63,248 bases of DNA from the IMG/VR virus record IMGVR_UViG_3300019887_000001, positions 1-63,248 of that record. One strand, written 5' to 3'. This DNA comes from a virus. Taxonomy: Duplodnaviria > Caudoviricetes. The translations under genes were made by a program, and so were the position numbers. The notes beneath the pieces are model-generated. The model did not search any database, was not told the origin of the DNA, and worked only from the letters and a program-made list of their open reading frames with translations. Below are positions 701 through 58,433 of the stretch, one piece after another; position 1 is the stretch's first letter, and the number at the start of each line of letters is the position of its first letter.

Positions 701-973
701 ATGCGTTCTCATCGTAACCAACGGCACGCCACTCACGGGCGCACTCGCGGCCTGCCGAATTGTTTCATCTGCGGGTTCCCATGCCCGCCACAGTTTGCGT
801 TCAACGTCGAAGGCGACTTCGGCACCTGGGCGCACCCTGATTGTTTCTCGTTTACGCTTGGTGACCCAGACAGCTCAACGCCACCTCGCGCGCTCAGCCG
901 TGGCCAGCGACTGACCCATACCTGCGGTAACCCGATGTGCGTCAGGCCTGACCACCTTGAGATCGCAGAGTGA
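701..973 (+). CDS. Small Cys-rich protein with degenerate HNH motif
   Basis: HTCGNPMCVRPDHL at C-terminus; AAAGGA before ATG 701; GTGA overlap with the next HNH gene. Confidence 0.55.
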   Translation: MRSHRNQRHATHGRTRGLPNCFICGFPCPPQFAFNVEGDFGTWAHPDCFSFTLGDPDSSTPPRALSRGQRLTHTCGNPMCVRPDHLEIAE

Positions 974-1587
974 TGGTCAAAATAGCCTGCGTCTGCCGTC
1001 GTTGCGGAAACACCTTTTACCGGAAGCCATCGGTAGTCGCGAATGGTCGCGGCGTGTTCTGTAACTGGGCTTGCCAGCACCCGTACAACGGTGATCCAGC
1101 CGACTGGTTTCCGCCAATGCTTGCACCCCGCGCAGGGTGTCTTGTCTACACCGGGCCACTCAACGCAGACGGCTACGGACAATTGGGTCATTTTGTATTC
1201 GGAAGCCAACTCGCCCACCGATTGGCGTGGCTGCTGGCATTCGGGGCTATTCCGGATGGGCTGCTCGTGTTGCACCGTTGCGATAATCCGCCGTGTTGCT
1301 TGCCTGCGCATCTGTGGCTTGGGACAGACGCTGATAACACCGCTGACATGGACGCTAAGGGCCGGCGTGTGGTGCCGGCGAGCATCTACATGCATGGAAG
1401 CGCGGCGTATGCGGCGAAATTGACCGATGTGCAAGTTGAAAGCATTCGCCATCAAGTAACAACGACACTAGAGCCGGGGAGCACATACCCACGCCGAGGA
1501 ACCGGAATTATTGCCAGCCTCGCGCGAGAATACAGCGTGTCTGTCAGCACAATTCGTAACATAGTGCGCCACCGGTTTTACGACTAA
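970..1587 (+). CDS. HNH homing endonuclease with N-terminal Zn finger and C-terminal HTH
   Basis: AHRLAW...VLHRCDNPPCCLPAHLWLGT..DNTADM HNH motif; CRRC/FCNWAC; antisense to virion operon. Confidence 0.88.
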   Translation: MMVKIACVCRRCGNTFYRKPSVVANGRGVFCNWACQHPYNGDPADWFPPMLAPRAGCLVYTGPLNADGYGQLGHFVFGSQLAHRLAWLLAFGAIPDGLLVLHRCDNPPCCLPAHLWLGTDADNTADMDAKGRRVVPASIYMHGSAAYAAKLTDVQVESIRHQVTTTLEPGSTYPRRGTGIIASLAREYSVSVSTIRNIVRHRFYD

Positions 1588-6924: not shown

Positions 6925-7100
6925 CAGGTCTGCTTCTCCTTCGCCTGGCGTTTGCGGATCGACCCACCGGGCTTCTCCATCTTTTTCGCGTCGATCGTGC
7001 CTTTGTTCATGGCACCGTAGAACACCGCGTCTGCACGCTTTTGCCCGTATCTTTCCTGAAACCCTTGAAGTACTCTTGCTCCTAGTTTCGTAAGGGGCAT
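6924..7100 (-). CDS. Small basic phage protein (MPLTK..G...YG...VFY...NKG type)
   Basis: Motif I recognise from small genes in phage head operons; ATG at 7100. Confidence 0.7.
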   Translation of the reverse strand: MPLTKLGARVLQGFQERYGQKRADAVFYGAMNKGTIDAKKMEKPGGSIRKRQAKEKQT

Positions 7101-7102
7101 CA

Positions 7103-7777
7103 GTGGACACATCCCATAACTGCGTTCTGTGCGGCGTTACGATCAATGATCGTCGCCACCCCAACAAGCCGACGTGTAGCCGCGCATGCGCAGGGCTGCT
7201 TAAACGAACGGTTCCTCCCCGTGAGTGCGAAGGATGCGGACGCCAGTTTCGCGCACTTGCAATAGGCGTCCGCTTCTGCTCCCGTGCTTGCGCCAGTCCG
7301 CGCTATGGATGGCGCCGGCAATTCCGTGAAGACCGCCGGTGTCCGATCTGCGGGATAATGTTCAACACTCAGCGGCTGTCGAGTAAACGCTATTGCTCGC
7401 GGCAGTGCGTAGGAAAGCGACTGCGGTTGGCTGAGCGACCGTGCGTCACATGCGGCGTAGCATTCCAACCTAAAACTGGACGGGTGCGCGCATGTTCGCG
7501 CTCTTGCGGTCGGCGTCATGCGCTTGGATTGATGGGATGGGCGCACCTCTCGGGTGTGCAGGCGAAGAAATATCTTCGTAGGACGGTGAGCGCTTGCCAA
7601 GTATGCGGCTGGAATACTGAACCCGCAGTGCTGGAGTTGCACCACCGTGATCGGAACCGCAGTAACAACAATGCCGTCAACCTTGCGCTCGTCTGCCCCA
7701 ACTGCCACGCGCTCGACCACTTCCATGCGAAGGATGGCCAATTCGCTAACAATCTCGGCAAACTGCGCGCCGGCTAA
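7103..7777 (+). CDS. HNH endonuclease with four CxxC...CSxxC Zn-finger repeats
   Basis: CQVCG...LELHHRDRNRSNN...NLALVCPNCHALDH; antisense insertion flanked by CATCA repeats. Confidence 0.88.
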   Translation: MDTSHNCVLCGVTINDRRHPNKPTCSRACAGLLKRTVPPRECEGCGRQFRALAIGVRFCSRACASPRYGWRRQFREDRRCPICGIMFNTQRLSSKRYCSRQCVGKRLRLAERPCVTCGVAFQPKTGRVRACSRSCGRRHALGLMGWAHLSGVQAKKYLRRTVSACQVCGWNTEPAVLELHHRDRNRSNNNAVNLALVCPNCHALDHFHAKDGQFANNLGKLRAG

Positions 7778-7782
7778 AAACA

Positions 7783-10170
7783 TCACTGCGTCTGCCCGAG
7801 CATCTGCGGCGCCGCGACGACGCCACCGGACGGCATCGCCGCCGGCGCGCCTGTCGCGCCAGCAACACGGGCCTGCGGCCCTGTTCCGAGAGCTCCTGCC
7901 ATTACCCCACCCATCGCGGACTGCGCGACGTTGCCAACCTCGACACCCGCGTTCCCCGGCGGCACGCCCCCGTCTGACTGGTTGAGCAGGTCCGTCGGGC
8001 GGGCAGGCATCAAAGCTGTAGGGACACCGCCTGGACCCATCTTGCCCTGCTGCTGCAGGTTGGCGATCGTGGTCATCTCCGTGTCACCCTGGATCTTCGC
8101 CGCCAGCTTCCACACGAGCTGCTGCCCGTTCGGCGACTTGAGCGCGGTCTCGACGTTGATGCGGTCGACCTCCTCGTCGGGTTGCTCTTCGCCCCAGCCT
8201 TCCTGCAACCACGTGTACAGGCTGAGCGCGCCACCCTTCCACCACTGAAACATTCCCTGAGCAAGTGGCAAGTTGCTGCCCTTGCGCATCGGGAAGATGA
8301 CCTCGACAGACCAGTCGCCGAGCAGGTCTTTGGTCGACAGCGGCAGCAGATCGTGATGCTTCTCCGTCTTCGGGTCGTATCGCGTGTAGACCGGGATCGG
8401 TTCGCCGAGCAGATCCGAGATGCTCGACGCCTGCTCGAGTAGGCACTCGGACGTGCGTTTCATCGCCGCCATCGCGCCCGCAAGGATCTGCCCGAGCGCG
8501 TTCTCGCCGGACGCCTGCGCGACCGCCTGAGAGAATCCGCCGTCGGCCGGATCACCTGAGGTCATCGACTGCGCCGGGCCGAACCGCTCGAGCAGATTGA
8601 GCGCCATGGTGACGAACCACGAGATGTCCTTGTCGACGCCCGCGTGGACGGCTGGCGTGATCTTGCCCGCGACATAGCTGACAGACCCACGGTGAACTTT
8701 GACCTTCATGGGCCGACCGTCTTCCGTCCAGAACTTCGGGTCGACCTGAGACGGGTCCGCGAACCACCCGCCGAAGCCGACCTCGTACGCGTGGTGGACC
8801 AGGCTCGACACCGTCTGATTCACGCCCATAATCAAACTGCTGAAGATGCTGAGCAGCGGAATGCCCTTCTTGTCGGGGTCGCGCTCGGAGGGATGATGAG
8901 CGCCGTAAAAGTACCCGCCGGGCACCTCGGTGATCCCGTACTGCTCGGCCAAATTCACGAAGGCCGTAGTCCGCTTGAGCTCTACGTCACCTGTGTCGGC
9001 GTTCTTGATCGGTTTGCGCAGATACGTGGGATAGACCTTGTTCGCCTGGCGGCTGTCCGCAGGAGCGTCGCCGACCTGATAAAAGATGCCGCCCGGCACA
9101 ACCAGCTCGTACAGGGTGACCTGCAGTCCCCCGCCCAACAGTACCGAGGTGGGACTATAGGAGCCGCCCTCGTCGTTGGGCGTGTCCTGGGCACCGATCA
9201 GGTCCCAGTCGAATCCGAGCGCCTTCAGGCTTCGAACACTGCGGACGGTGCGGACAAGTAACGCGTCGACCTTGCCGGTCGCCGGATCGACGCCGATCGG
9301 CAGGGTGATGTCTGCACTGAGCACCTCGACGACGAACGGTAAGGCGCGCGCCCGCGCGTCGGCCTCGTAATCGTCGAACGCTTTCGCGCTCTTGACGTAG
9401 TCGAGCTTGAACGCGTGCGGCTGATCGGCGTAGAACGCGTCGTCGGGGTCGCGCCCGTCCGCGTCGCGGGTGAAATACGGGTGGATCTTGGTGCCCGACG
9501 GGTCGTCGTCTTCTGGCTCGGTGAAGTCGAGCAGATGACTCCACGACGCCGGCCGCGGCAGCACCAGCAGTCCGTACTCGCCGTCGTTGGCACCATGCGC
9601 GACAAAGCTTTCCCACAGGTCTTCGCCGCCCGCGCGCAGCTCGCCGAGCACGCCAGACTTGCCGGGTGCGCCGAGCCAGTGCTCGACCTTGTCGGCGAGT
9701 CGCGTTGCCATCGGGCCGGGCCCCGACGGACGTCGCACCCCGGGTTTCTTCCGCACGAGGTACTGGATGATGTTCTGCACCATCAGCATCGAATGCGGGA
9801 TCGTCACGCGGAACGCGTCGGCGTTTTCGATGTCGAGCGGCACGTGCGGACGGATCTCGTTGCGGCGGAGTTGTCCCGCTTCGGCGATGCGGCGCCTCGA
9901 GCGGCGGAAGCGTGCGTAGTTGTCTTTCCACAGGTCGCCGAGGTCGAGCGTGCGCGCGTCGCTTGCGACAGCCGTCTGTCGCGATCCGCCGGGGCCCGCC
10001 CACGTCGCGGTCCTCGTCTTCGGTCGGCGGGGCGTGCGTTCGATCGCCTTCGACTGCGGTGCTTCGGACGTGCCGGAGGTCGTCGAGGTGTCCGTGCCGA
10101 CCTGCTGCGAGGCAACCGGTCCGTGGCCGATGCGCGACTTGCCCTTGCCGCTGAGCTGCTGTTCGGCCAT
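7783..10170 (-). CDS. Portal protein
   Basis: 795 aa, downstream of terminase; GIPLL, alpha/beta core and Gln/Gly/Pro/Met-rich tail as in podoviral portals; assignment mainly by size and synteny. Confidence 0.72.
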   Translation of the reverse strand: MAEQQLSGKGKSRIGHGPVASQQVGTDTSTTSGTSEAPQSKAIERTPRRPKTRTATWAGPGGSRQTAVASDARTLDLGDLWKDNYARFRRSRRRIAEAGQLRRNEIRPHVPLDIENADAFRVTIPHSMLMVQNIIQYLVRKKPGVRRPSGPGPMATRLADKVEHWLGAPGKSGVLGELRAGGEDLWESFVAHGANDGEYGLLVLPRPASWSHLLDFTEPEDDDPSGTKIHPYFTRDADGRDPDDAFYADQPHAFKLDYVKSAKAFDDYEADARARALPFVVEVLSADITLPIGVDPATGKVDALLVRTVRSVRSLKALGFDWDLIGAQDTPNDEGGSYSPTSVLLGGGLQVTLYELVVPGGIFYQVGDAPADSRQANKVYPTYLRKPIKNADTGDVELKRTTAFVNLAEQYGITEVPGGYFYGAHHPSERDPDKKGIPLLSIFSSLIMGVNQTVSSLVHHAYEVGFGGWFADPSQVDPKFWTEDGRPMKVKVHRGSVSYVAGKITPAVHAGVDKDISWFVTMALNLLERFGPAQSMTSGDPADGGFSQAVAQASGENALGQILAGAMAAMKRTSECLLEQASSISDLLGEPIPVYTRYDPKTEKHHDLLPLSTKDLLGDWSVEVIFPMRKGSNLPLAQGMFQWWKGGALSLYTWLQEGWGEEQPDEEVDRINVETALKSPNGQQLVWKLAAKIQGDTEMTTIANLQQQGKMGPGGVPTALMPARPTDLLNQSDGGVPPGNAGVEVGNVAQSAMGGVMAGALGTGPQARVAGATGAPAAMPSGGVVAAPQMLGQTQ

Positions 10171-18853: not shown

Positions 18854-19168
18854 CTAACACGGCAACCCCCAGAAGCACTGCGCGCCCCACCACCCGTTGT
18901 ACGACGCGTATTGCGCCGCGACAACGCCAAGCAGAAAGAACACGACCGCGGAGAACAACACGACGATCACGAAAAAGCCCACGGACCAGTCGGTCAATTC
19001 CTTCGTCCGCGCGACCTGATCGACCTGCGACACCGCCTGGCGCTTCTGCACGCCGGCCTGGGCGTCCTGTTCGATGCCCTGCTCGAGCTGCTCGGATCGC
19101 AGGTCGTCGATCTGCTGCTGAAACCCTGGATCGTCGCGGCGTCGCTGAGGAGTCGGGCCCTCCGTCAT
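18854..19168 (-). CDS. Membrane protein (coiled coil plus C-terminal TM)
   Basis: ATGA-coupled to response regulator; GFFVIVVLFSAVVFFLLG. Confidence 0.55.
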   Translation of the reverse strand: MTEGPTPQRRRDDPGFQQQIDDLRSEQLEQGIEQDAQAGVQKRQAVSQVDQVARTKELTDWSVGFFVIVVLFSAVVFFLLGVVAAQYASYNGWWGAQCFWGLPC

Positions 19169-19866
19169 GGGTGGATGCTGTACCCGCGAGGCGTACGACG
19201 GCTGCAACCGTCGTACGCGGTGTGGATCGTCGGCGCGCCAGCAACGCTCGCCAGGCGTTTGCGCAGGCGTCCGATGTGAACGTGCACGAGGTGGCTGAAG
19301 CTCGGGTCGTCGCGTGGCCACACGACGAGCCCGAGCGCCTCGTGCTCGACCGTCTCGGGCGACGCTGCCACGAGCGCGGTCAGCAAATGAAACTCGGTCG
19401 GGGTGACGTGGAACGGTCTGCCGTTGATGTGCGCGAGATGACTTCGAGTTAGCTGTAACGTGCCGCACACGGTGTTTGGCCCGGGCGAGCTGGGTGCCGG
19501 TAGCTGGGCCGCGCATCGGCGCAGGACCGCTTCGATCCGCGCGTCCAGGTCGTCGAGGTCGAACGGTTTCGAGATGAAGTCGTCTGCGCCCATCTTGAGA
19601 CTGAGCACCCGATCGGCCTGAGATTGGCGCCCGCTGAGCACGATGATCGGCACGCTGCTCAGCGCGCGAATCTTCGGCACGAGCAGCGACCCGTCGCCAT
19701 CAGGCAACACGAGGTCGAGCAGCACCATGTCGGGCGGGTCGCTGCGGATGTGCTGCAGCGCGACGGCGCCGCTTCCGACCGGGACGATATCGAAACGGTC
19801 CTCGAGCGCGCTGGCGTAGACGTCGATCAGTGATCGGTCGTCATCGACGACCAGAATCGTTGGCAC
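19165..19866 (-). CDS. OmpR/PhoB-family response regulator (receiver plus winged helix)
   Basis: ILVVDDD, VLLDL (phospho-Asp), GADDFISKPF, VTPTEFHLL, VHVHIGRLRKRL. Confidence 0.93.
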   Translation of the reverse strand: MPTILVVDDDRSLIDVYASALEDRFDIVPVGSGAVALQHIRSDPPDMVLLDLVLPDGDGSLLVPKIRALSSVPIIVLSGRQSQADRVLSLKMGADDFISKPFDLDDLDARIEAVLRRCAAQLPAPSSPGPNTVCGTLQLTRSHLAHINGRPFHVTPTEFHLLTALVAASPETVEHEALGLVVWPRDDPSFSHLVHVHIGRLRKRLASVAGAPTIHTAYDGCSRRTPRGYSIHP

Positions 19867-20544: not shown

Positions 20545-20844
20545 TCAGCGTCTCCGTCTGATTGGTTTGACCAGGCCCATGTCGCGGGCCTGCTCGCGGG
20601 TTGGCAGGATGATCGGGTGCTCTGCCCGCTGCTCGTCGGTCAGGTTGTGGAGCACCTCGTCACCGACCTGGGAGGCGATGCTGAACGCGAGCGCGAACAT
20701 GCCCGCGTCACCCTCGTCGCCGCGGTACGCCGTGTCGATCGTGCCGTCTTCGTTCTCGATGATCACCAGCACGGATCGATTCTGTGGGTCGTCGATGCGC
20801 CGCTGAAGGCGCTCAAAGGCGAAGGCGTCGTTTAGATTCGTCAC
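20545..20844 (-). CDS. Hypothetical protein
   Basis: GTGA-coupled to HNH gene, GGAG RBS. Confidence 0.6.
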   Translation of the reverse strand: MTNLNDAFAFERLQRRIDDPQNRSVLVIIENEDGTIDTAYRGDEGDAGMFALAFSIASQVGDEVLHNLTDEQRAEHPIILPTREQARDMGLVKPIRRRR

Positions 20845-21395
20845 GGCACATTTCTCCATATTTGCCGCGAGACTATCTGCGATATGTGCCCGCTGCTAAT
20901 TCCGTACGTCTGCCCGAGTGTCCTTAGCGAGTCGCCCGCTGCACGACGGCTGCGAATTGTTCCGACAATGTCAACCGTAAGCTTCGCAGCGCCGCAGTTC
21001 GCACCGTTGAAGTCCGCAGCGCGACCCTTGGCATGCATGTCCTTGATGTTGTCGCTCATTGTCCCAAGGAACAGATGGCTTGGACGGGCGCAGGGGCGAT
21101 TATCGCAGCGATGCAATACCTGGATGTGGCCTAAGCGCGGCCCTCGCATGCAGGGGTGGTTCCCATAAGCGAGTTCCCACGCGATGCTATGATCAGAGCG
21201 AGTTCGTTGCTCCGCAGGTACCCAGATTTCGGCATAGTTTGGCCCCGGGGGACCACCACGCGCCGGACATGCCGGCCAACACTGATCTAGTTCAGGACGA
21301 TGTGGCGGAAGCGGGCCGTCTTTGTCCACGCGCTCTTCCAGCAATTGCCTTAGGCTCAGTGAAGCCTTTCTTGTTCGGTGGTAGCCATAACTCAT
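20841..21395 (-). CDS. HNH homing endonuclease with C-terminal HTH
   Basis: VLHRCDNRPCARPSHLFLGT..DNIKDM..KGR; AKLT...HTH. Confidence 0.88.
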   Translation of the reverse strand: MSYGYHRTRKASLSLRQLLEERVDKDGPLPPHRPELDQCWPACPARGGPPGPNYAEIWVPAEQRTRSDHSIAWELAYGNHPCMRGPRLGHIQVLHRCDNRPCARPSHLFLGTMSDNIKDMHAKGRAADFNGANCGAAKLTVDIVGTIRSRRAAGDSLRTLGQTYGISSGHISQIVSRQIWRNVP

Positions 21396-31965: not shown

Positions 31966-32502
31966 ATGAAACAGATGCAGACCCCATTTGGCCAATGGTT
32001 GACTGAAAAGCTCGATGAACGTGGCTGGATCGCTGCCGACCTGACCAGAGCATCCCAGACGCCCGACAACCCCCGCGGACTCGATTCTGGCCTCATCAGC
32101 CGCTGGTTACGCGACGGGCCCCTGGCGGCCACCCCGACCCACGCCGAGACGCTCAGCCGTCTGGCGCACGCGTTCAGGGTCCCCGACAGCGAGGTCTACC
32201 GCGCCGCCGGTCGCCTCCCGCCCGACATTCCGTCGAACCCGATCCAGAGCGAGCTCGAAGAGCGTCTGCACCACCTCGGCACGATCCTGAGCAAGTACCC
32301 GCGAGCGTTCTGGCTCGCCGTGATTGAGGCGAGCGAACACTTTGCCGAATCGACGACGCCCCCGCCTTCACCCCCGGTTAGCGCCACCAAACCACACGTA
32401 CTTAACGCGCCCAGTAGGTCGCTAACTACGGCCACTTCGCGTCGCCGCAAGCGGTTAACGGATTCACAACCCGCCTTTGTGCCCGTCTCTCTCGCCGCCT
32501 GA
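31966..32502 (+). CDS. Immunity repressor (XRE HTH) with C-terminal -LAA tail
   Basis: FGQWL...LDERGW..ADL.R...GL....ISRW...LA.AF.V....VYRAAG; start may be ATG 31975. Confidence 0.82.
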   Translation: MKQMQTPFGQWLTEKLDERGWIAADLTRASQTPDNPRGLDSGLISRWLRDGPLAATPTHAETLSRLAHAFRVPDSEVYRAAGRLPPDIPSNPIQSELEERLHHLGTILSKYPRAFWLAVIEASEHFAESTTPPPSPPVSATKPHVLNAPSRSLTTATSRRRKRLTDSQPAFVPVSLAA

Positions 32503-32520
32503 TGCGCACGTAACGCGATT

Positions 32521-33567
32521 GTGACTCGACGGCCCCCGTCAATTCCCCTAGACGGGGCGGTACCGAAGACTGCCGATCCTTCTATCTTCCGCACCCTGAA
32601 CGGGAGGAAGATCGTGGATCTGTATGACGCAGCTTCGTACCACCAGTTAGCGCTCAACGCCGCAGGCAAGTCGCCGAACACCCTCAAGCTGTACCTGCTG
32701 TACGAGAAACGCTTTCTGGAATACCTCAACGCACGTCATATCGCCGCCGACCTGGACGCGCTGAACCCACTCTACGCACGCCAGGCCGTGCTCTGGTTTC
32801 AACAGCGCCGCGTTGGCACCCGCGGCGGCGTGTCCGCAACCGCGATGTTCCTGAACGTGCTCAAGACCTGGGCGTCGTTCCTCGAAGCGGAAGGCGTGTG
32901 GGCCGACTCGCCATTACGCCGCGTGCAGCGGGTCAAGGTGAGGAAGCTCGAGCGCCAGCCGTACACGCGAGCCGAGTGCAACGCGCTGTTGTATTCGTGC
33001 TCAGCCAGCTCGTCGCCGGAACGCGACCGATTCCTCGTGGAGCTGCTGCTCGGGTCGGGCGCGCGGATCGGCGAGGTGACCGGTCTGCGGCTCGGCGACG
33101 TCCGCTGGGATCGACGCACGATCCGCGTCCTCGGCAAGGGTAACCGTGAGCGGACGGTCCCGATCGGCGACCCCGAGCAATCCGACGGTGGGCCGGTCTG
33201 GCGCTCGTGGCGTGTGTACCTGAAGGTGCGCGCGGCGCAGGTCGATCGGATGCGCGGGCGCGCGCACGACCAGCTCTTTCTGACCCTGGCCGGCTACCCG
33301 CTGACCGCGGAAGGCGGTGCCGACGTCATCCGTCGCCTGGGTGGATCCGTCGGCGTCGAGGGTGCCCTTCCGCATCGTTTTCGCCACACCTTCTGCACGG
33401 TGTATCTGACGCGGTACCCGGGCGACGAGATCGGCCTGCGCCGCATCGTTGGCCACCTGTCCAAAGCCGTGCTCGCCGACTACGTCCATCTCGCGAACGC
33501 CGAGATCGCGCTGCGTGCCGGCCACGGGTCGCCGATGAGTGTCTGGCTTACTGAGAAGATTCGCTAG
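32521..33567 (+). CDS. int: Tyrosine integrase
   Basis: GARIGE, GKGNRER, HRFRH, GH, DYVH catalytic residues intact. Confidence 0.93.
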   Translation: MTRRPPSIPLDGAVPKTADPSIFRTLNGRKIVDLYDAASYHQLALNAAGKSPNTLKLYLLYEKRFLEYLNARHIAADLDALNPLYARQAVLWFQQRRVGTRGGVSATAMFLNVLKTWASFLEAEGVWADSPLRRVQRVKVRKLERQPYTRAECNALLYSCSASSSPERDRFLVELLLGSGARIGEVTGLRLGDVRWDRRTIRVLGKGNRERTVPIGDPEQSDGGPVWRSWRVYLKVRAAQVDRMRGRAHDQLFLTLAGYPLTAEGGADVIRRLGGSVGVEGALPHRFRHTFCTVYLTRYPGDEIGLRRIVGHLSKAVLADYVHLANAEIALRAGHGSPMSVWLTEKIR

Positions 33568-33943
33568 TCGTTTCCTGATCGGCCCAGGCGCGCAGCACGC
33601 GAATCAGTTGGGTGTTGAGACTCCGCCCCTCCCGCGCGGCCAACATTTTTGCCGTTGCAAGCAGGTCCTCAGGAAAGCGAACGGTACGGTGCAGTCTGGA
33701 GAGCGCTGGGTCACGCGGCGCACGTGGGCGCACCCCGTCTCCTTTGAGTTTGTTGCATAGCGAATGTGCTGGTTGCAGATTGGGCATCGTGTCCAAGCCA
33801 CCCTTGGCCCGCGCAATGACGTGGTCGATCTCCATATCGCCCCGCGCCACAGGTGTTCGGCAGATCCCACATAGTCCGTCGGCGCGTTCCCACAGGAAGT
33901 CGCGGAGCGCGTCAATCGTTGCCACGCTCAGGCCTCTTGGCAA
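33548..33943 (-). CDS. HNH nuclease fused to Arc-like ribbon-helix-helix
   Basis: CGIC..EIDHVIARAKGG...NLQPAH..CN..K; then TVRFPEDL.......AAREGRSLNTQLI. Confidence 0.82.
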   Translation of the reverse strand: MPRGLSVATIDALRDFLWERADGLCGICRTPVARGDMEIDHVIARAKGGLDTMPNLQPAHSLCNKLKGDGVRPRAPRDPALSRLHRTVRFPEDLLATAKMLAAREGRSLNTQLIRVLRAWADQETTSESSQ

Positions 33944-37398: not shown

Positions 37399-37522
37399 GC
37401 AGCGCTAGCACCGGCAAGAGCAAAACAATGGCGATCACACCTAAAACGATCATGATCACGCTCAACACCGTCGCCTGCACTATCGTGTTCCGCTGTTCTC
37501 GCTTGAATTCCTCGTCATTCAT
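37382..37522 (-). CDS. Small single-TM protein (46 aa)
   Basis: MNDEEFKREQRNTIVQATVLSVIMIVLGVIAIVLLLPVL; ATGA-coupled to the VirD4-like gene. Confidence 0.55.
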   Translation of the reverse strand: MNDEEFKREQRNTIVQATVLSVIMIVLGVIAIVLLLPVLALHGGCG

Positions 37523-39180
37523 GGCGCCACGTCCGCGTACTGCGCATGCCCCGTCGGCAGCTCGCCCCGCTCCCGAGCATGTCGACGCCTCAAGTTCTCA
37601 GCCCGCGTACACGCCTCAAGATGATCAACGCACGCCTTGATGTCGCACACGTGGTCGACCGTCCACCCCTTCTGCATCACCCCGTGCTCCCACTCGCAGA
37701 TCAGTCGATGCGCCTGCTCGTACTTGCGCCTCGTCGGCACCCACACCCGCGGATACCCGTCAACGTCGAAATTCCCGACCCACGTCCGCCAGCCATCCTT
37801 CACCTTTACGTGCCGATACACCATGCCTCGAAGATCTTCCTCTGGTTCCGTCCCTCCGTTACCTTCCGCAGTCGGTTCCATCTCGACGGCGGGTTCCTCC
37901 GCAGGTCCCTCCGCGAGCACCTTGACGTTGACCTCGAGCACGTACGGCAGCGCGATCCGCGCCATGCCCCACCTCCCATCCATGCGGTCAACCGGCCGCA
38001 CGCGATACGCGCACTCGCCCGTCCCGAGCCACATCAGGTCGTCGCGCATGACCGTCGGCGTACCGCTGGCGAACTTTCCGAGGGTGACGTTATTAATTCG
38101 ATGATCGTTTTCAGAACGCGGGACCTTGAGCGGAAACAACCGACTCAACGCGTCCGCGTCGTCGGGATCCCCCTGCGCCAGGATGACCTGCCAGGCCGTC
38201 TCCTGAAGCACCTGATTGCCGAGACCGTGCACCGCAGCTTCGAGCTGGCTCAGCCCGTGCGCAGCAACGACCACCCCGACCCCCGCGTCTCTCGCCCGGG
38301 CGAGCAGCGGCTCGAGGTGACGCGCGTGCTTGCCGAGCGCGCCAACCTCGTCGACGACGAGTAAGCAGGACGTCCCGACCGGCACCGCGGTACAGGCCCG
38401 CTGCAGCGCAACGAGCGCCCACGCGCCGATGATGCGCGCCAGCGACGGGTAGCGCCGACTGTCCAGGCTGACGAGCAGCGTCGTCTTGCCCTGCACGACA
38501 TCCTCGAATCGAGCCGCGTCGATGCCCGCACCCAGACTAGGGCCGGCGGCAGAGTCGAGCAGTCTCGTCACCCGCATGAGCGCCGTCGCCATGCCGGACA
38601 ACTCCGTTACAGACGCGGCCGCGAGCTCTGCTTGCCAGATCGGCACCCGCGGCCTACGCTGATTCCGCTTCAGCGCGGCGGCCAGCATGGTGGGGTTGAG
38701 CAGTGCTTCGACTGCTTCTAGCGTTGGAGGGGTCGCCTCCCAACGCAAGAGGTGACCGATCCACTGACACGCTCGGGCGGCCGCCTCGCTGAAGACTTCC
38801 GCCGGGCCCTCGTGGCGCGCGGCTTCGGTGAGCTGCTCGGCCAGTACCGTCGGGTCAGGGTCCAGCAGGTCGAGCTTGAGCCGCCCGCCGATCGTCCACA
38901 CCAGGCCGCCCGCGGCGGCGATCGCCTCCTGCATCGCCCGCGAGCCCTTCGCGTCGATGACGATGCACGGGCCGATGCTCGCGTGTCCCTGGACGAGGAG
39001 GCTGAGTAACGTGGTTTTGCCCGAGCCCGGTGCGCCGAATACCGCGCCATGGTGGCCCAGCTCGCGGCGAGAAAGACTGACCGTCTCGAGCGCTGACCGA
39101 TAACCGATCCCGACACGCCCATGCCGATGCCCGATGCCATGCCGCGCGCGTGCCGCCGCGATCCAGCCGGGTCGCCTCAC
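37519..39180 (-). CDS. VirD4/TraD-like coupling ATPase fused to C-terminal HNH nuclease
   Basis: HGAVFGAPGSGKT, IVIDAKG, LVVDEVG, ARARDAGVGVVVAAH; C-terminal DGYPR..AHRL...VDHVC...AC..HLEA.T..EN. Confidence 0.85.
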   Translation of the reverse strand: MRRPGWIAAARARHGIGHRHGRVGIGYRSALETVSLSRRELGHHGAVFGAPGSGKTTLLSLLVQGHASIGPCIVIDAKGSRAMQEAIAAAGGLVWTIGGRLKLDLLDPDPTVLAEQLTEAARHEGPAEVFSEAAARACQWIGHLLRWEATPPTLEAVEALLNPTMLAAALKRNQRRPRVPIWQAELAAASVTELSGMATALMRVTRLLDSAAGPSLGAGIDAARFEDVVQGKTTLLVSLDSRRYPSLARIIGAWALVALQRACTAVPVGTSCLLVVDEVGALGKHARHLEPLLARARDAGVGVVVAAHGLSQLEAAVHGLGNQVLQETAWQVILAQGDPDDADALSRLFPLKVPRSENDHRINNVTLGKFASGTPTVMRDDLMWLGTGECAYRVRPVDRMDGRWGMARIALPYVLEVNVKVLAEGPAEEPAVEMEPTAEGNGGTEPEEDLRGMVYRHVKVKDGWRTWVGNFDVDGYPRVWVPTRRKYEQAHRLICEWEHGVMQKGWTVDHVCDIKACVDHLEACTRAENLRRRHARERGELPTGHAQYADVAP

Positions 39181-46111: not shown

Positions 46112-46687
46112 TCAGTAGAACGCGTCTCGCCCTACTGTCTTGGCGAATGCGAGGACAGCGGCATGAGCCTGCTCCTCCGTATCGAACGTGCCAAGGTAAT
46201 AGCGTTGCTCGTCCACCTCGAGCCGGCCCATCCATCGCTTGTGGTTCGGGTGCACTCCACGAAACCGCGAGCGTGTGCCCGTCCGTTTGGAACTGTTGAG
46301 TTGATTGATTCCGGTTCCGTCGCGGAGATTTGAGCGACGGCAGTTGTGTGGATCAAGATCGATATGATCAACAGTCTTGACCCCCGGCATCAGCATGCGA
46401 TGTAGATACTCGTCCCGACCCTTGAGTCGCGTTCGTGCGTAGCCATCGCTGTTGTTTTGCCAGAGATGTTTCGCTAGGGACGGAAAGTCGGCGAGATCCA
46501 CAATCCAACGCACGCCATGCGGGTCGCTGAGAACTCCTACTTCGCCCTCTATGAAGTTCCGCGCACGGAGACGCTCGAAGAATGGGACCTGTCCCCTGGC
46601 TGTCGCGTAGTAGCAACGCGCGCACATTCCGCGACAATAGGCCGCTCGTTCTCTGCATCGAGCACACATCATGTCTGCCTGCCGCAT
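46112..46687 (-). CDS. HNH-AP2 homing endonuclease
   Basis: YLHRML...[14 protein letters not shown]; SRFRGV...W....[11 protein letters not shown]. Confidence 0.9.
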
Positions 46688-53594: not shown

Positions 53595-54311
53595 TCACTG
53601 TCCGTTGTGGTCGTAGCGAACGCCGAGCTCTTGCGGCCGCGGCGGGAGTCCGTCCGGAATGAGACGACCCTCGCCGGCTCGCCCCGGGCTTCCGACGGTG
53701 ACCGACTGGCTGCCGGCGAGGAACTGACTGCGCTGCGGATCTGGGATCAGTGGCAGTCCCTGCGGGGCGCCGCTCATCGGCCGTCGCCGCTGGGTGTACT
53801 CGACCAGGCGCGCGACCGAAGACGGCACGTTGGCGATCTCGCCGACGCTGATCGGGTACTCAAGCCCGTTGATCCGCATCACGCGCGGCGGGTACAGCCC
53901 GGTGACCGCGTGGATCTTGTCCTCGTCCTGGTCGGGATTCAGGAACACCGGCTCGCGTGGCTCCGTCTTCCACGACTCGAGCGTCATCTCGCGCTGCTTG
54001 CGATCGTTCGCCAACTCGGCCTGGGTGTCGGCGTTCGTCTTCTTGCCGCCGTTGGTGGCGCCAGACAGGTTGCCGCTGACCAGCTCGATGATCTGCGCCT
54101 GCATGCCGGCCATCTGGGCCTGCATCTGGCTCATAAGTTGGAACATGTCGGCCTGGGTGATCTCGCCGACGTTCGGAGAGGCTTTCAGGATCGGCGCGAG
54201 CTTCGCCGCAGCTTCTTCGGGATCGCGGTCGATGACCGCGGTCGCCTCTTCGGTTCGATCTTTCTGACGCAGCAACGCGGACGCCGCGGTGCCGTTATTG
54301 GGTTGTGGCAT
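53595..54311 (-). CDS. Capsid-associated protein
   Basis: AGGAGG RBS before ATG 54311; RINGLEY.I..GE...VP.SVA. Confidence 0.65.
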   Translation of the reverse strand: MPQPNNGTAASALLRQKDRTEEATAVIDRDPEEAAAKLAPILKASPNVGEITQADMFQLMSQMQAQMAGMQAQIIELVSGNLSGATNGGKKTNADTQAELANDRKQREMTLESWKTEPREPVFLNPDQDEDKIHAVTGLYPPRVMRINGLEYPISVGEIANVPSSVARLVEYTQRRRPMSGAPQGLPLIPDPQRSQFLAGSQSVTVGSPGRAGEGRLIPDGLPPRPQELGVRYDHNGQ

Positions 54312-54356
54312 AGGGCTATTCCACCTCCTGTGGAGTCCGTACAATTGGCAACACTT

Positions 54357-54388
54357 GGCCCCCGCGATGTTGGAAGCATCCGGGGGCC
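54357..54388. terminator. GC-rich hairpin downstream of MCP
   Basis: GGCCCCC-G(C)GATG-loop-CATCC-GGGGGCC; no clear U-tract. Confidence 0.35.
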
Positions 54389-54414
54389 TGGACACCGAAG
54401 GGAGTAAAGCTTCG

Positions 54415-54888
54415 ATGCCAAGCGGAGTTTACGCGCGGTTGCCGCTCGCGGAGCGGTTCTGGATGAAGGTCATCTGCGATTTGGCCACTGGGTGCTGGTT
54501 TTGGACCGCGAGCCTGTTGCCCTCCGGCTACGGCAGTTTCGGCATACATGGCGAAACCTTTACGGCTCCCCACGTCTCGTGGTTTCTGCACTACGGCGAC
54601 TGGCCGACTCGATGGGTACTTCACCACTGCGATGTGCGGCGCTGCGTTCGGCCTGACCATCTCTTTCTGGGAGATCATCTGGCCAACATGGATGACATGG
54701 TCAAGAAGGGCCGCTCTCGTCGTGGCGAGCGAACCAATCTGGCGAAACTGACCGACCAGCAGGTAATTGCGATGCGTGCAGCCTTCCGAGCCGGCATGAG
54801 CCGGATGGCACTCGCCGCCGAGTACGGACTGGATCATTCGACCGTCGCGTACATTATTCGCCGTAAAACATGGGCGCATTTGCCATAA
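54415..54888 (+). CDS. HNH homing endonuclease with C-terminal HTH
   Basis: RFWMKV...GCWFWT, VLHHCDVRRCVRPDHLFLG...NMDDM..KGR. Confidence 0.9.
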   Translation: MPSGVYARLPLAERFWMKVICDLATGCWFWTASLLPSGYGSFGIHGETFTAPHVSWFLHYGDWPTRWVLHHCDVRRCVRPDHLFLGDHLANMDDMVKKGRSRRGERTNLAKLTDQQVIAMRAAFRAGMSRMALAAEYGLDHSTVAYIIRRKTWAHLP

Positions 54889-54909
54889 ATACCACGCCGA
54901 TATGGCTAA

Positions 54910-55905
54910 TCACCCAGCTACGGCGGTCTCAATTCTGAGTATTCGTGCCGCGTCAAGTATCTTAGCGCAATAAGCAACTTTCCAGCCTGCGACCCCGTAC
55001 TGCTGCAGCGGGTCGACCTTCGATGGCGTGTTCGCGGGCACAACCATGATGTCGATGCCGGCGTTGTTCGTCTCGGCGTTCAGGTTGCCGATCGTCTGAG
55101 AAGCCAGGTCGACGGCGCCGAACGCGTACGGGCCCCAGATCAGCGCGGCGTGGACGTCGACACCCGCCGCGCCAGCACCCGTGAAGATCGGGTTGGCCGT
55201 GCTGACGTCGAAGTTGACGCCTTCGATCTCGCCGACGGTGCCACTCATGAACGACGCCGGCGCGGCGTAGCGCATGATGTCGAGCCAGCCGCCGGTCGCA
55301 GCGTCGGCCTTCAGGTCGTACTTCTGCGACGGAGTGACGGAGCCGTGGTAACGCGCGTCGGGAAACCGCGGCACGTTCGCCTTTTCCATCGTGCGAACGG
55401 CCTTGCGAACCTCGGACATGACGAAGTTCATGCCCGCCGCGACCGTCACCCTGGAGACTGCCGTCGAGGCGTACTGAACTGTCGAAGACGCGCCCAGCTC
55501 GGTCGCGGTCAGCGTGTGGACCGACAGACCGGCTTGCTCACCTTCGACGTCCATGACGTTGGACATCGACGGGTCGATGCCCGCGCGAATGAGCAGGTCT
55601 GAGACCTTTTGGAACGCCCCGTACTGGGCGAGCGTCGAGGTTACCGCGGTGACGGTCAGCGACCCCTCAGAAGGCGGCGTGCCTTCAGTCAGCGCCGACG
55701 TCGCGGCTGGGAGACTGCCCCACTTGCGCCACTGGATGCCCGTACCAGTGTTGCTGCCGATCGTGTCGGTCATCGCGTCTTTGAGCAGCGGCAGGTACGG
55801 GAGCAGACGCCTCAGCGTCTTGGCCACGTAATACGATCGCTGCTCGACCGTCAACGTGGCGTAGGTCTGTACGGAAATTTGCTTTACCCGCGTCTTTCTA
55901 TACAT
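54910..55905 (-). CDS. Major capsid protein (N4-gp56-like)
   Basis: LTEG.PP, LAQYG, V..M..ANVP, G.VGEIEGV.F, DPLQQYG..GWK; true start uncertain (see findings). Confidence 0.92.
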   Translation of the reverse strand: MYRKTRVKQISVQTYATLTVEQRSYYVAKTLRRLLPYLPLLKDAMTDTIGSNTGTGIQWRKWGSLPAATSALTEGTPPSEGSLTVTAVTSTLAQYGAFQKVSDLLIRAGIDPSMSNVMDVEGEQAGLSVHTLTATELGASSTVQYASTAVSRVTVAAGMNFVMSEVRKAVRTMEKANVPRFPDARYHGSVTPSQKYDLKADAATGGWLDIMRYAAPASFMSGTVGEIEGVNFDVSTANPIFTGAGAAGVDVHAALIWGPYAFGAVDLASQTIGNLNAETNNAGIDIMVVPANTPSKVDPLQQYGVAGWKVAYCAKILDAARILRIETAVAG

Positions 55906-55907
55906 CC

Positions 55908-55922
55908 TGCTATAATGAGCAG
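55908..55922 (+). promoter_or_regulatory. Extended -10 leaderless promoter for antisense HNH gene
   Basis: TG-C-TATAAT then 6 nt then ATG 55923. Confidence 0.7.
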
Positions 55923-56873
55923 ATGTATGGGTGTGGGGCTTGTGGGTTGTTGAAGGTGGCGGCCGACTTCTATCGGGACCTGCGGTACCCGGAGTGGACT
56001 CCGCGGAGTTACTGCAAGGCGTGTATGGCCGCGAAGCGCAAGGCCCCTAACGTTCACTGGTTGGCGAAGCCGTGCACCGGATGTCGACGAATGGTCCCGA
56101 TGGACGGGTTCTACTTCCAGAAACAAGGTTGGCTCATGCAGCCGTGTAAGGCGTGCCGTGCGGCCTACCGTCCAGCACGCCTCGAAGTCACTGAGTCGCG
56201 ATGTAGTAAGTGCAAGCTGACGAAGCCGGCCGCAGCGTTCGGTGCTGATGCGAACAAAGCCTCGAGACTCGCATCTTGGTGTTTGACTTGTACGCGCGCT
56301 AGGCGCCCCGCCACCATCGTCGTGCCGTCCGAGAAACGCTGCCCGACGTGCGACACGACGAAACCAGCCGACGAGTTCTACCGGACGGATCGTCGGCCCG
56401 ATGGGTTGTATGCCCGCTGCAAAAATTGCCACAATGCGCGGGCATATCCCGGCCAGAAGCGCTACAAAGCAGCGAACAAGGAACAGGTGGCGGAGTGGAA
56501 TCTGCGATGGCACCACGAAAGTTGGTCGCCTGAAGCAAAGGCCGCGTCGATTCAAAAACTGAAGGAATGGAATGCGGCCAATCCGGATGAGCACGCCATT
56601 CGAGGCGAACGACGTCGCGCGCGCATTGCCGGCACTCTCCCCAATGATTTCACTGGCACGCAGTTCAAAGCACTGAAAACTCTTTACCGAGGGCGCTGCG
56701 CGTACTGCGGTAAGAAACCGAAGCCACCAGACACGTTGGTAATTGAGCACGTCATCCCAGTCTCGAAAGGTGGGCCGAATACGCTCAGCAACATCGTGCC
56801 ATCGTGCGGACCATGTAACGACAAAAAACACGCGAACCGCGCGCCAACTCATCAGCCGACGTTGCTCATATAG
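55923..56873 (+). CDS. HNH endonuclease with four Zn-finger repeats
   Basis: Repeated CxxC...K....F....CK.C; CAYCG...EHVIPVSKGG.N...NIVPSC..CN..K. Confidence 0.9.
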   Translation: MYGCGACGLLKVAADFYRDLRYPEWTPRSYCKACMAAKRKAPNVHWLAKPCTGCRRMVPMDGFYFQKQGWLMQPCKACRAAYRPARLEVTESRCSKCKLTKPAAAFGADANKASRLASWCLTCTRARRPATIVVPSEKRCPTCDTTKPADEFYRTDRRPDGLYARCKNCHNARAYPGQKRYKAANKEQVAEWNLRWHHESWSPEAKAASIQKLKEWNAANPDEHAIRGERRRARIAGTLPNDFTGTQFKALKTLYRGRCAYCGKKPKPPDTLVIEHVIPVSKGGPNTLSNIVPSCGPCNDKKHANRAPTHQPTLLI

Positions 56874-56890
56874 GACATAGGCGGAAACTC

Positions 56891-57901
56891 CTAGGCTTGA
56901 CTGAGGTCAACGCCGAGCCACTTGCCCGCGCGAACCTCGCGGTCGAATTCCTCGTTGCTCATACCGGTCTTTGGGTCAATTGCTCGATCTCGCCAACTAC
57001 CGCCGGATGGCACGGCCTGTCCGTTCAACACCGCGGGTTGCGGCGCGCCTGACAGCTGCCTGGTTTTCAGCGACTTGTTCTCGGCGCGTAATCTCGCGAC
57101 GATCTGGTCCGACTCGGCCTTGGCGGCCTTCTTGCCTGCATCGAACGCCAGAGCGTGCATCGTGCGCGCCCCGGCGACTCCATTCGGCGCCTGGTTCAAT
57201 TTCGCCAGGCCCGTGTCGCCAATGCCCTCGAGACTTTTCAGCGCATTCCAGTCGGCCGAGAATGCGCGTGTGACCTGCAGCTCAGCGGCCCGATAGATCG
57301 GGCCCGCCAATTCGGCCCACTGCGTCATCTCGGCGACGTCCTGGCGCTCCTGGTCGGTTGCGGTCCCCCGCACGACCTTGTCGCGCAGGTTGTCGTAGCG
57401 AAACCGACCGTTGCTCTCGACGGTGTAGCCGCTGATCTCGGCGAGCTGGGTCAGCACGTGGTGGTCCGCGGCTTTCATCGCGCCGAGCTCGCCCTGTGCG
57501 CGAGCGACGATCGCTTGCGCTTCGGCGAGGTCTTTCTTGTGCTGCTCGAGCTCGGCGGCGAACCGTGCCGCGTCGCGCCGCGAGTACTTTGGTTGCTCAG
57601 AAGTTGTGGACTGGGGCTGTTCGGCTTCCTGCGCCTCGTCGGCGGGCTCTGCTGCTACCCCTTCGTCCTCGTCGTCTTCGACCACACCCTCGTCGTCATC
57701 GGAGTCATCAGGCTCTGGCGCTTCCTGCCGATTCGACGATCTCTGCGGAATTTGCTCCTCAGCTTCGACGTCCCGTTGAGCGTTTGCGGCGATTTCCGCT
57801 TGCGCCATCTGGTCGTCGAGTTGAGACGCCCACGCGTCGATTGAGTCGGTCGGTGCCGGCGACGTGCCTGGTGTACTGGTTGCGGGTTCGAGTGGCTGCA
57901 A
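56891..57901 (-). CDS. Capsid scaffolding protein
   Basis: Acidic disordered N-terminus and coiled coils, upstream of MCP; AGGAG RBS before TTG. Confidence 0.72.
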   Translation of the reverse strand: MQPLEPATSTPGTSPAPTDSIDAWASQLDDQMAQAEIAANAQRDVEAEEQIPQRSSNRQEAPEPDDSDDDEGVVEDDEDEGVAAEPADEAQEAEQPQSTTSEQPKYSRRDAARFAAELEQHKKDLAEAQAIVARAQGELGAMKAADHHVLTQLAEISGYTVESNGRFRYDNLRDKVVRGTATDQERQDVAEMTQWAELAGPIYRAAELQVTRAFSADWNALKSLEGIGDTGLAKLNQAPNGVAGARTMHALAFDAGKKAAKAESDQIVARLRAENKSLKTRQLSGAPQPAVLNGQAVPSGGSWRDRAIDPKTGMSNEEFDREVRAGKWLGVDLSQA

Positions 57902-58136: not shown

Positions 58137-58433
58137 ATGAAACGCTCTCTGATCATTCTCGGGCTCGCGGCAACACTCGCGATTACCACGTCAGCGACAG
58201 CCCTGGCCCAGTCCGCAACAACCTCGGTGACCAATTACGGCGACGGCCGCGCGTCTTCCTTCACGACGACCTACACCGACCCCTACGGATCGTCGTCGGT
58301 AACGAACTATGGATCCGGCGCACCGTCGTCAAACACGACGACTTACGCGAATCCCTACGGATCCTCTTCGGTCACCAACTACGGCGACGGTAGTGCGTCC
58401 TCATCCACGACCACCTACGGCGTGCAGCCATGA
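58137..58433 (+). CDS. Secreted Ser/Thr/Tyr/Gly repeat protein
   Basis: Signal peptide ending ALA-Q; three 24-aa repeats SVTNYGxGxxSSxTTTY. Confidence 0.8.
   Translation: MKRSLIILGLAATLAITTSATALAQSATTSVTNYGDGRASSFTTTYTDPYGSSSVTNYGSGAPSSNTTTYANPYGSSSVTNYGDGSASSSTTTYGVQP

Follow-up and report, generated by a model that had tools for sequence, protein, structure and literature searches.

The major capsid protein (MCP) gene of the IMG/VR virus record IMGVR_UViG_3300019887_000001, a stretch of 63,248 nt analyzed over its full length and referred to as the window, has been cut from its native ribosome-binding site (RBS), ATG, and second codon by a precise 1000-nt insertion that carries an HNH endonuclease gene in antisense orientation. 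Because the MCP is needed in hundreds of copies per virion yet has lost its own RBS, a compensating mechanism is required. In this computational analysis of sequence alone, stop and start codon arrangement and codon usage in this and related insertions suggest, with a probability of roughly 0.6, that the insert is not spliced and that ribosomes are relayed from the stranded RBS through a mini-ORF (open reading frame) and a 322-codon "bridge" ORF, restarting at ATT 55878 or ATG 55905 of the capsid gene. It is an even bet that, in this soil-phage lineage, backward homing-endonuclease cassettes in coupled late operons persist by carrying or evolving such a "translational bridge," with selection purging the codons that would close it and with a capsid start that is possibly AUU.

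An antisense HNH insertion strands the native capsid start

The window has a G+C content of 64%, and nearly all of its long ORFs lie on the minus strand. The insertion and its surroundings comprise the following features.

54910..55872, minus strand: MCP body, VQTY to stop, 320 codons; N4-gp56 family major capsid protein
55873..56872, unstranded: HNH cassette d (the insertion), 1000 nt; flanks ATGTCC and ATTTCC, an imperfect 6-nt direct repeat
55923..56873, plus strand: HNH endonuclease gene, intact, 316 aa, Zn-finger repeats and HNH domain; antisense to the late operon
56873..56892, minus strand: stranded native MCP translation start; AGGAG at 56892-56888, 9 nt, ATG at 56878-56876, TCC at 56875-56873
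56891..57901, minus strand: scaffold-like gene, 336 codons; function assigned from position and from homology to the gene preceding the MCP in relatives

On the minus strand, the stop codon of the scaffold-like gene (TAG, 56893-56891) overlaps the AGGAG at 56892-56888. Shine-Dalgarno (SD) strength was calculated as duplex energy against an anti-SD motif, for which background sites have a median of -3.0 kcal/mol and their strongest 5% begin at -6.9 kcal/mol; at -6.8 kcal/mol, the SD duplex of the relic ATG at 56878 falls within the top ~5%. After ATG TCC, the frame continues as TAT ATG AGC AAC GTC GGC TGA, and the MCP frame resumes at GTA CAG ACC TAC exactly 1000 nt later, the capsid-side end of the insert reading GGG TAA AGCAA ATT (55878-55876) TCC (55875-55873) GTA CAG ACC TAC. 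The initial annotation had described this arrangement of AGGAG, 9 nt, and ATG TCC after the scaffold stop, with the MCP frame 1,000 nt on, and every coordinate was correct. The TCC repeat that it noted at both ends is present but is better described as a 6-nt repeat with one mismatch (ATGTCC/ATTTCC).

In silico removal of 56872..55873 (1000 nt) produced ATG TCC GTA CAG, encoding MSVQTYATL. Relatives were drawn from IMG/VR (L001-L003), a metagenome locus (L006), and a complete 60.5-kb insert-free genome (G001). The window MCP frame is intact and 79-88% identical to those of L001-L003. Homologues of the scaffold-like ORF, which matched no Pfam or PHROG family, lie immediately 5' of the MCP in L001-L003, L005, and G001. 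At the insert-free loci L001, L002, L003, and L006, the scaffold stop is followed by an RBS, a start, one codon, and then VQTY; the junctions read AGGAG-N8-ATG GCA GTC CAG (L001), GGAG-N8-ATG GTC GTG CAG (L002/L006), and GTG GTA GTC CAG (L003), and SD energies at these capsid starts ranged from -5.6 to -7.4 kcal/mol. A wider search returned 255 MCP homologues at E<=1e-20, several of them called N4-gp56 family by their sources; the match to Pfam Phage_capsid_4 was weak (E 2.3e-4), and homologues in named phages were distant only (<=32% identity). Among 34 homologue N termini, 27 conformed to M/L/V-x-V/L-x-T-Y, two began at or directly before the V, five were called from internal codons, and none (0/34) carried an N-terminal extension. 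The V of VQTY is invariant in a 4-sequence alignment and is present in 27/29 full-length homologues. Given the insert-free relatives and these N termini, the native protein is M-x-VQTY and the stranded ATG TCC its old start. The natural start that the initial annotation had predicted upon deletion agrees with the insert-free relatives and 27 of the 34 homologues, and no HNH-free relative aligned here starts its MCP with an extension resembling MYRKTRVKQIS.

Four close capsid homologues on contigs of 1.7-11 kb, P0022 and P0023 (each 287 aa) and P0028 and P0033 (each 256 aa), were called from internal codons; their 5' ends may have been displaced by insertions or may use non-canonical starts. 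In L009 (1150-1230), a more distant insert-free locus on a short contig in which errors are possible, ATA stands at the capsid start position, and the end of a 9-codon mini-ORF (ATG GCA ... CAA TAG) overlaps it as ATAG. This ATA, together with GTG and TTG starts elsewhere, suggests that capsid initiation in the clade may often proceed via coupling and non-AUG codons.

Faulty assembly does not explain the insertion. One 2309-nt contig from run X1 (possibly the source sample) covers both insert junctions, and a 263-nt contig from run X2, of another sample and another study, covers the capsid-side junction (55774..56036) with zero differences, including the letters of ATT 55878. The same genotype was thus found unchanged in runs from two samples and two studies, and no contig joined across the insert, i.e., no insert-free DNA form was seen, among the contigs of three soil-metagenome DNA runs.

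A stop-free frame spans the insertion and ends beside the capsid gene

The sense strand of cassette d carries the following features.

56852..56878, minus strand: mini-ORF MSYMSNVG, 8 codons, from the relic ATG; its TGA (56854-56852) overlaps the bridge ATG (56852-56850) as TGATG
55884..56852, minus strand: bridge ("relay") ORF, 322 codons, codon-aligned antisense to the HNH gene of cassette d; ends with TAA at 55886-55884
55876..55878, minus strand: candidate MCP start ATT, giving native-length MSVQTY, 322 aa; 5 nt after the bridge stop
55903..55905, minus strand: candidate MCP start ATG, giving MYRKTRVKQIS-VQTY, 331 aa; 19 nt upstream of the bridge stop
55900..55928, minus strand: hairpin/palindrome, ~11-bp stem; ATG 55905 is paired in it to the complement of the region where the HNH gene starts

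The codons TTA, CTA, and TCA, which read as stops on the opposite strand and are here called stop-making codons, are absent from the HNH gene of cassette d (0/316). The bridge is not in the MCP frame, as its TAA at 55886-55884 is out of frame with GTA 55872; this TAA lies 5 nt before ATT 55878. ATG 55905 is the sole canonical in-frame MCP start, from which the N terminus would read MYRKTRVKQISVQTY, with an 11-residue extension. The bridge product matched no Pfam family, and hence contains no intein domain, and had no relative besides itself among 5.8 billion proteins; the source annotation lists the bridge ORF as a protein. Bridge products of the cassettes likewise matched no protein family. 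Since gene callers normally call the HNH strand, the lack of relatives neither supports nor refutes open frames elsewhere.

HNH genes occupy the same site in the same backward orientation in L005 (56% identical to that of cassette d) and L008 (35%, partial), both of which have intact MCP genes. The capsid-side junctions read GCGGGTAAAGCAA-ATT TCC GTA CAG in the window, AGGAGG-N8-ATT TGC GCG GTA CAA in L005, and AGGAG-N10-ATG TGT GCC GTG CAA in L008. ATT 55878 aligns with the L005 ATT and the L008 ATG and therefore occupies the start position of both relatives; the L005 ATT is preceded 8 nt upstream by a strong SD, AGGAGG (-10.8 kcal/mol). Sense frames are open over both HNH genes (L005, 1553..2593; L008, 51..698), the L008 gene containing 1 stop-making codon in 205, and the interval from sense-frame stop to MCP start is similarly arranged at all three loci (TAG-ACTT-ATT in L005, TGA-ACTAA-ATG in L008, TAA-AGCAA-ATT in the window).

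Beside these cassettes, capsid codons 1 to ~20-24 have been recoded to A/T-ending synonyms in L005 (2607-2680) and L008 (713-790), with G+C at third codon positions of 0.30 and 0.20, respectively, as compared to 0.75-0.95 for the remaining MCP codons and for all other relatives. The MCP 5' end of the window is not recoded. The recoding looks like homing-endonuclease target-site immunity or a co-conversion tract.

Antisense cassettes elsewhere in the window show similar architecture

The window contains eight HNH genes, of which four are antisense to their own operons, three stand alone in the same orientation, and one is fused to a larger gene.

973-1587, 7103-7777, ~54415-54888, and 55923-56873, plus strand: antisense HNH genes of cassettes a, b, c, and d
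20841-21395, 33548-33943, and 46112-46687, and the C terminus of 37519-39180, minus strand: other HNH genes (e-g and the fused one)
733..1587, unstranded: cassette a; antisense HNH_3 gene 973..1587 (plus); sense frame open only from 1467 to 736
7100..7785, minus strand: cassette b; bridge from ATG 7783 to TGA 7102-7100; antisense HNH gene 7103..7777 (plus), PHROG 1271, E 3.3e-25
54415..54888, plus strand: cassette c HNH_3 gene, directly downstream of the MCP gene; Pfam HNH_3, E 1.2e-7; PHROG 1872, E 1.3e-25
54316..54879, minus strand: cassette c bridge ORF, in frame with the MCP stop; ends with TAG

The bridge of cassette b has TGATG at both ends, one over the stop of the upstream gene and one over the native ATG (7100) of the downstream gene; with the junction of mini-ORF and bridge in cassette d, TGATG thus occurs at 56854-56850, 7785-7781, and 7102-7098. 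The cassette c bridge ends in a TAG located 4 nt before the ATG (54311) of the next gene, which has an AGGAGG SD. Stops and starts therefore lie at the spacings of termination-reinitiation, as TGATG overlaps, stop-N4-ATG (54318-54309), and stop-N5-ATT (55886-55876). G001, which has no HNH_3 gene across its complete 60.5 kb, retains uninterrupted junctions at both sites. The counterpart of the cassette b junction consists of a stop, 9 nt, and ATG CCT TTA (MPLTKLGARVL), and where cassette c is absent, the MCP stop overlaps the next start (ATGA). This 9-nt spacer and ATGA overlap indicate that the late genes are natively coupled and that the cassettes interrupt the coupling.

Cassettes b and d are each flanked by direct repeats that hold the displaced start codon (TGATG/TGATG at 7098-7102 and 7781-7785; ATGTCC/ATTTCC at 55873-55878 and 56873-56878). 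Insertion seems to have copied several bases of the initiation site, the upstream copy of which would now start the bridge or its feeder mini-ORF. For cassette c, a flanking repeat of about 16 matches in 27 nt was read by eye and is not claimed.

Stop-making codons are depleted in antisense cassettes

Because the open frame of cassette d alone could be an effect of G+C content, the idea was tested on other cassettes. Stop-making codons were counted against a denominator of CTN+TCN+TTR codons, with other A-ending codons in four-fold boxes as a control, and seven antisense cassettes were pooled: a-d of the window, L005, L008, and L098, a relative of cassette c.

Genes; stop-making codons; control codons
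a-d; 1/90; 86/409
a-d, L005, and L008; 2/131; 127/615
a-d, L005, L008, and L098; 2/159; 155/746
e-g (same orientation); 10/58; 50/220

The four antisense HNH genes of the window contain 1 (a), 0 (b), 0 (c), and 0 (d) stop-making codons in a total of 901 codons, as compared to 5 (e), 2 (f), and 3 (g) in the 506 codons of the same-orientation HNH genes. For the seven cassettes, Fisher tests gave 3e-12 versus control codons and 4e-5 versus the same-orientation HNH genes. With cassette d, the source of the hypothesis, left aside, the other six contain 2 stop-making codons in 1402 codons, where ~14.6 are expected (Poisson P ~6e-5, by simple arithmetic from the 1.04% rate in 20 long genes). The remaining two opposite-strand frames contain 4-14 stops each. 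Nine plus-strand non-HNH ORFs, including the integrase and the repressor-like gene, carry 33/1766 stop-making codons, so the depletion is not a strand effect.

No distant HNH ORF from IMG/VR was free of stop-making codons (0/80), including 12 from loci at 62-69% G+C. Among nine relatives of the cassette c HNH gene, that of L098 is the only one with opposite-strand ORFs to either side and also the only one with zero stop-making codons (0/318), the other eight having 4-14; its sense ORF of 354 codons runs from 37 nt after the stop of a capsid-like gene to 17 nt before the next ATG. Chance would hardly produce so codon-specific a depletion in the pool of seven cassettes.

The HNH gene of cassette d and its genomic context

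The HNH gene of cassette d matched Pfam PF01844 over positions 1-46 of 47 (E 3.6e-13) and PHROG 1035 "endonuclease VII" (E 2.5e-40). Its ORF accounts for 951 of the 1000 nt of the insert, leaving <=50 nt outside, and its stop codon abuts the last C of the relic TCC. It is ~30% identical to actinophage HNH genes, and its nearest named relatives are in actinophages, including cluster J. No nucleotide match to cassette d was found in 50,697 phage records; a viral-contig scan with the HNH protein recovered a single relative (31% identity), and neither the cassette a nor the cassette b HNH gene matched anything in scans of the same kind. Among otherwise collinear relatives, cassette d is missing from L001, L002/L006, and L003, and the same site is filled in L005 and L008. 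Like free-standing HNH genes, this gene has an intact nuclease domain, is precisely present or absent among relatives, and is embedded in neither an intron nor an intein. No terminal inverted repeats surround cassette d, making an invertible or transposon-like element unlikely. An 11-nt repeat, TATGAGCAACG, came up in a repeat search and was within chance by estimate.

An extended -10-like element, TGCTATAAT, read by eye, ends 6 nt 5' of the HNH ATG and possibly forms part of a leaderless promoter for this gene; a scan of 54200-57100 found no sigma-70-like promoter. The HNH gene of L005 is also preceded by TACAAT GAGCAC ATG. The near-perfect palindrome at 55900-55928 lies between the HNH start and ATG 55905, and each of its strands carries a -10-like hexamer, 6 nt, and ATGTAT (TGCTATAAT GAGCAG ATG on the plus strand; CATTAT AGCAGG ATG on the minus strand).

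The HNH load of this phage is unusually heavy. The window also contains a tyrosine integrase and a repressor-like gene (31966-33567, plus strand) and an OmpR-type response regulator (19165-19866, minus strand), and the phage is probably temperate. No prophage relatives emerged from scans of 185,579 species genomes with the MCP alignment or with the HNH protein.

A proposed translational relay and points against it

In the proposed mechanism, the backward landing of a free-standing HNH cassette after MCP codon 2 would have stranded RBS-ATG-TCC. The insert would be kept in both DNA and RNA and read through by the late mRNA. Ribosomes would load at the strong stranded RBS, translate the 8-codon mini-ORF MSYMSNVG, restart at the overlapping TGATG, and traverse the 322-codon stop-free frame that lies opposite the HNH gene; their passage would melt the hairpin that covers ATG 55905. 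Termination at TAA 55886-55884 would be followed by capsid reinitiation beside that stop, at either ATT 55878 or ATG 55905. Restart at ATT 55878, 5 nt downstream of the stop, would yield the native MSVQTY and is given close to an even chance; it is favored by its alignment with L005 and L008, by the conserved N-terminal length, and by its position after the stop. Restart at ATG 55905, 19 nt upstream of the stop and with an 11-residue extension, is favored by its cognate start codon and is held to be a serious possibility of somewhat less than even odds.

The open operon-sense frame would in addition keep the 1-kb antisense stretch covered by ribosomes, thereby avoiding Rho-type polarity on the capsid and later genes. 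In other cassettes, a bridge would likewise carry ribosomes over 0.5-1 kb of antisense sequence, from an upstream stop or a start site that has been duplicated, to where the downstream gene begins. We infer bridge translation, its feeding of MCP initiation, the choice of start, and the role against polarity. The bridges look like frames translated only for the sake of translation. Among the rescue options listed in the initial annotation (reinitiation after the relay ORF, splicing, bypass, and DNA excision), reinitiation is preferred because of the codon-level selection across seven cassettes and the stop/start architecture at their ends, and the other three found no support.

Several observations weigh against this mechanism. 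Neither candidate start has a good RBS: ATG 55905, with an SD energy of -2.7 kcal/mol against the background median of -3.0, has no usable SD, as the initial annotation had said, and that of ATT 55878 is weak (-3.9 kcal/mol). AUU is a weak initiator. In the predicted fold of the read-through RNA, ATG 55905 is paired in the hairpin and ATT 55878 is unpaired; the stem was read from the predicted structure, and fold z-scores of whole segments were unremarkable (-1.45 and +1.29). Given the weak AUU and SDs and the paired ATG, a capsid protein made in hundreds of copies would depend on a three-step chain of restarts. A terminator-like 8-bp G+C-rich hairpin followed by TTTTTTGTCGTT also lies on the sense strand at 56845-56827, within bridge codons 3-9; 54200-57100 contains 4 terminator-like motifs against a shuffle expectation of 2.8 +/- 1.9. 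Should this hairpin be functional, its suppression might require closely trailing ribosomes. It is not conserved in L005.

The comparative evidence has counterweights of its own. The cassettes of the window, L005, and L008 are homologous and thus not fully independent, and the bridge-start ATG/GTG with its nearby TGA is forced by conserved T-H-Q codons of the HNH protein. Cassette d alone is unexceptional, in that, across 20 ordinary genes, this frame is open in 10% of windows of 316 codons, and its Leu/Ser content gives a P(0) of 0.11. Cassette a is a partial exception, since one CTA produces a stop at 1470-1468 and leaves a gap of ~130 nt. Eight of the 80 distant HNH loci have opposite-strand ORFs to both sides and yet have 3-10 stop-making codons, although orientation at these other loci was assigned by a crude ORF-neighbor heuristic. 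Finally, a small antisense gene at 58137..58433 (plus strand), which lies between a 1524-codon internal-virion-protein-like gene and the scaffold-like gene, has 3 stop-making codons and no bridge. Its product contains a signal peptide and repeated SSSVTNYG-like units and matched no family.

Alternative explanations

The alternative given most weight, though still unlikely, is that the bridge is a by-product of G+C-rich codon usage and that the MCP starts independently at ATG 55905 with an 11-residue extension. Its template would be the late read-through mRNA or else a leaderless one made from a promoter within the cassette, where CATTAT-N6-ATG stands back to back with TATAAT-N6-ATG of the HNH gene. 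No canonical in-frame start other than ATG 55905 is present, a -10-like hexamer ends 6 nt ahead of each of the two ATGs, the open frame of cassette d has a chance of ~0.1, and the nearest named HNH relatives reside in phages of Actinobacteria, in which leaderless translation is described as common (PMC11855218, in its relevant part). The pooled depletion across seven cassettes, however, is unlikely to arise by chance, and the promoter scan of 54200-57100 returned no sigma-70-like site. L005 lacks the CATTAT-N6-ATG arrangement, no N-terminal extension occurs among the 34 homologues, and on read-through mRNA the ATG is paired in a hairpin. It is very unlikely that the insert is an intron with an antisense endonuclease gene, removed by splicing such that the native RBS and ATG drive MSVQTY or MSLQTY. 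Mycobacteriophage LittleE provides a precedent in a spliced capsid intron with a bottom-strand endonuclease (PMC3706429, in the part concerned), the closest named HNH relatives include cluster J genes, and a U...G join could be made at the window junctions. That join would yield MSLQTY, replacing the conserved V of VQTY, and the <=50 nt outside the 951-nt HNH ORF leave little of the 1000-nt insert for an intron. An Rfam scan of 55600-57100 at E<=10 gave four chance-level matches and zero intron families (no RF00028), no intron was found in L005 or L008 at E<=1, and no family exceeded its gathering score in the whole window; the same scan detected Intron_gpI in LittleE (E 1.5e-5, 30.7 bits), so that the intron-model check called for in the initial annotation was negative with a working positive control. 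Furthermore, splicing would not select for the purge of stop-making codons seen in the cassettes, and it would be unnecessary for cassettes b and c, which share this architecture and lie between genes.

An effectively dead capsid gene, whether in a defective phage or in one rescued by insert-free relatives that co-infect or by rare excision between the repeats, is highly improbable. The MCP gene does lack a canonical start with an RBS, and insert-free relatives are present in soil metagenomes, but its frame is intact and 79-88% identical to theirs, the same sequence recurs in runs from two samples, and L005 and L008 combine the same arrangement with intact MCP genes. DNA excision in particular, which the initial annotation had proposed to check by looking for insert-lacking DNA, is not borne out by the contigs, none of which joined across the insert, and an imperfect 6-nt repeat is a poor excision substrate. 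The bypass of T4 gene 60 spans 50 nt and requires a stop codon right behind the take-off site, a hairpin there, and a signal in the nascent peptide; of the features of that system, the cassette shows just the matched codons. A ribosomal bypass of this type, starting at ATG 56878, with take-off at TCC and landing at the identical TCC 1000 nt on, is barely conceivable, as the next codon is TAT rather than a stop, the nascent peptide would comprise 2 residues, the distance to be crossed is 1000 nt, and chance alone would supply a 3-nt repeat. The relay through the bridge remains the preferred reading. If cassettes of this lineage do persist through such bridges, this would represent a previously undescribed sharing of both DNA strands by a selfish gene and its host operon. 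If the relay is confirmed, it would explain how antisense homing-endonuclease genes reside in essential operons without polarity, would define a class of long "non-protein" ORFs mis-annotated by gene callers, would offer a natural system for termination-reinitiation at non-AUG codons, and would alert annotators to possible ATT or ATA starts of the capsid genes of such phages.

Comparison with known systems

In termination-reinitiation coupling, stops and starts overlap as UGAUG or AUGA, as in trpB-trpA, and ribosomes restart near a stop in RNA phage MS2. The cassettes resemble such systems in the TGATG at the junction of mini-ORF and bridge and at the ends of cassette b, in the stop-N4-5-start spacing elsewhere, and in the native ATGA of G001. 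They differ in that the upstream ORF is a 187-354-codon frame that encodes no recognizable protein and runs antisense to a real gene, and in that the capsid restart is maybe at AUU. A full-text search of a limited paper collection turned up no earlier account of ORFs that bridge antisense homing-endonuclease genes on the sense strand. Two elements of the present case have precedents, namely HNH genes that stand free where two genes meet and a capsid gene that harbors an endonuclease gene in antisense (PMC3706429). Free-standing phage HNH genes such as T4 mob/seg and those of cluster J mycobacteriophages resemble the cassettes in that the gene is intact, present or absent among close relatives, precisely inserted at gene junctions, and found in several copies per genome, and the recoded flanks in L005 and L008 are a further likeness. 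Endonuclease and homing activity of the cassette d gene are putative.

The capsid gene of LittleE contains an 820-bp intron with a bottom-strand endonuclease gene, for which Pope et al. 2013 report splicing by RT-PCR and N-terminal sequencing (PMC3706429). LittleE and the present phage are both high-G+C phages in which a ~0.8-1 kb insert with an antisense endonuclease gene breaks the capsid gene and relatives are insert-free. LittleE, however, has its own 204-nt ribozyme segment beside the endonuclease gene (Intron_gpI, E 1.5e-5), whereas none is detectable in the window and there is no room for one. Its endonuclease gene is not purged (2/177 stop-making codons), whereas in the window the insert follows codon 2 and the sense frame is open.

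The closest concept comes from Arsenault, Gosselin and Gogarten 2025 (PMC11855218), who report a "hidden" HNH insertion, the ShiLan domain, in the DNA methylase genes of actinophages. As described in the part of that study devoted to the insertion, the HNH gene nearly fills the insert with its stop in the last bases, no intron or intein features are present, the host-direction frame is stop-free and read through, and leaderless expression of the HNH gene is proposed (PMC11855218). There, the HNH gene and its host gene share a strand but not a reading frame, and the insert is read in frame with the host protein and stays in it (PMC11855218, same part). In contrast, the HNH gene of the window lies on the opposite strand, separate ORFs are linked by stop/start overlaps, the capsid initiation region is displaced, and the same design also bridges intergenic insertions.

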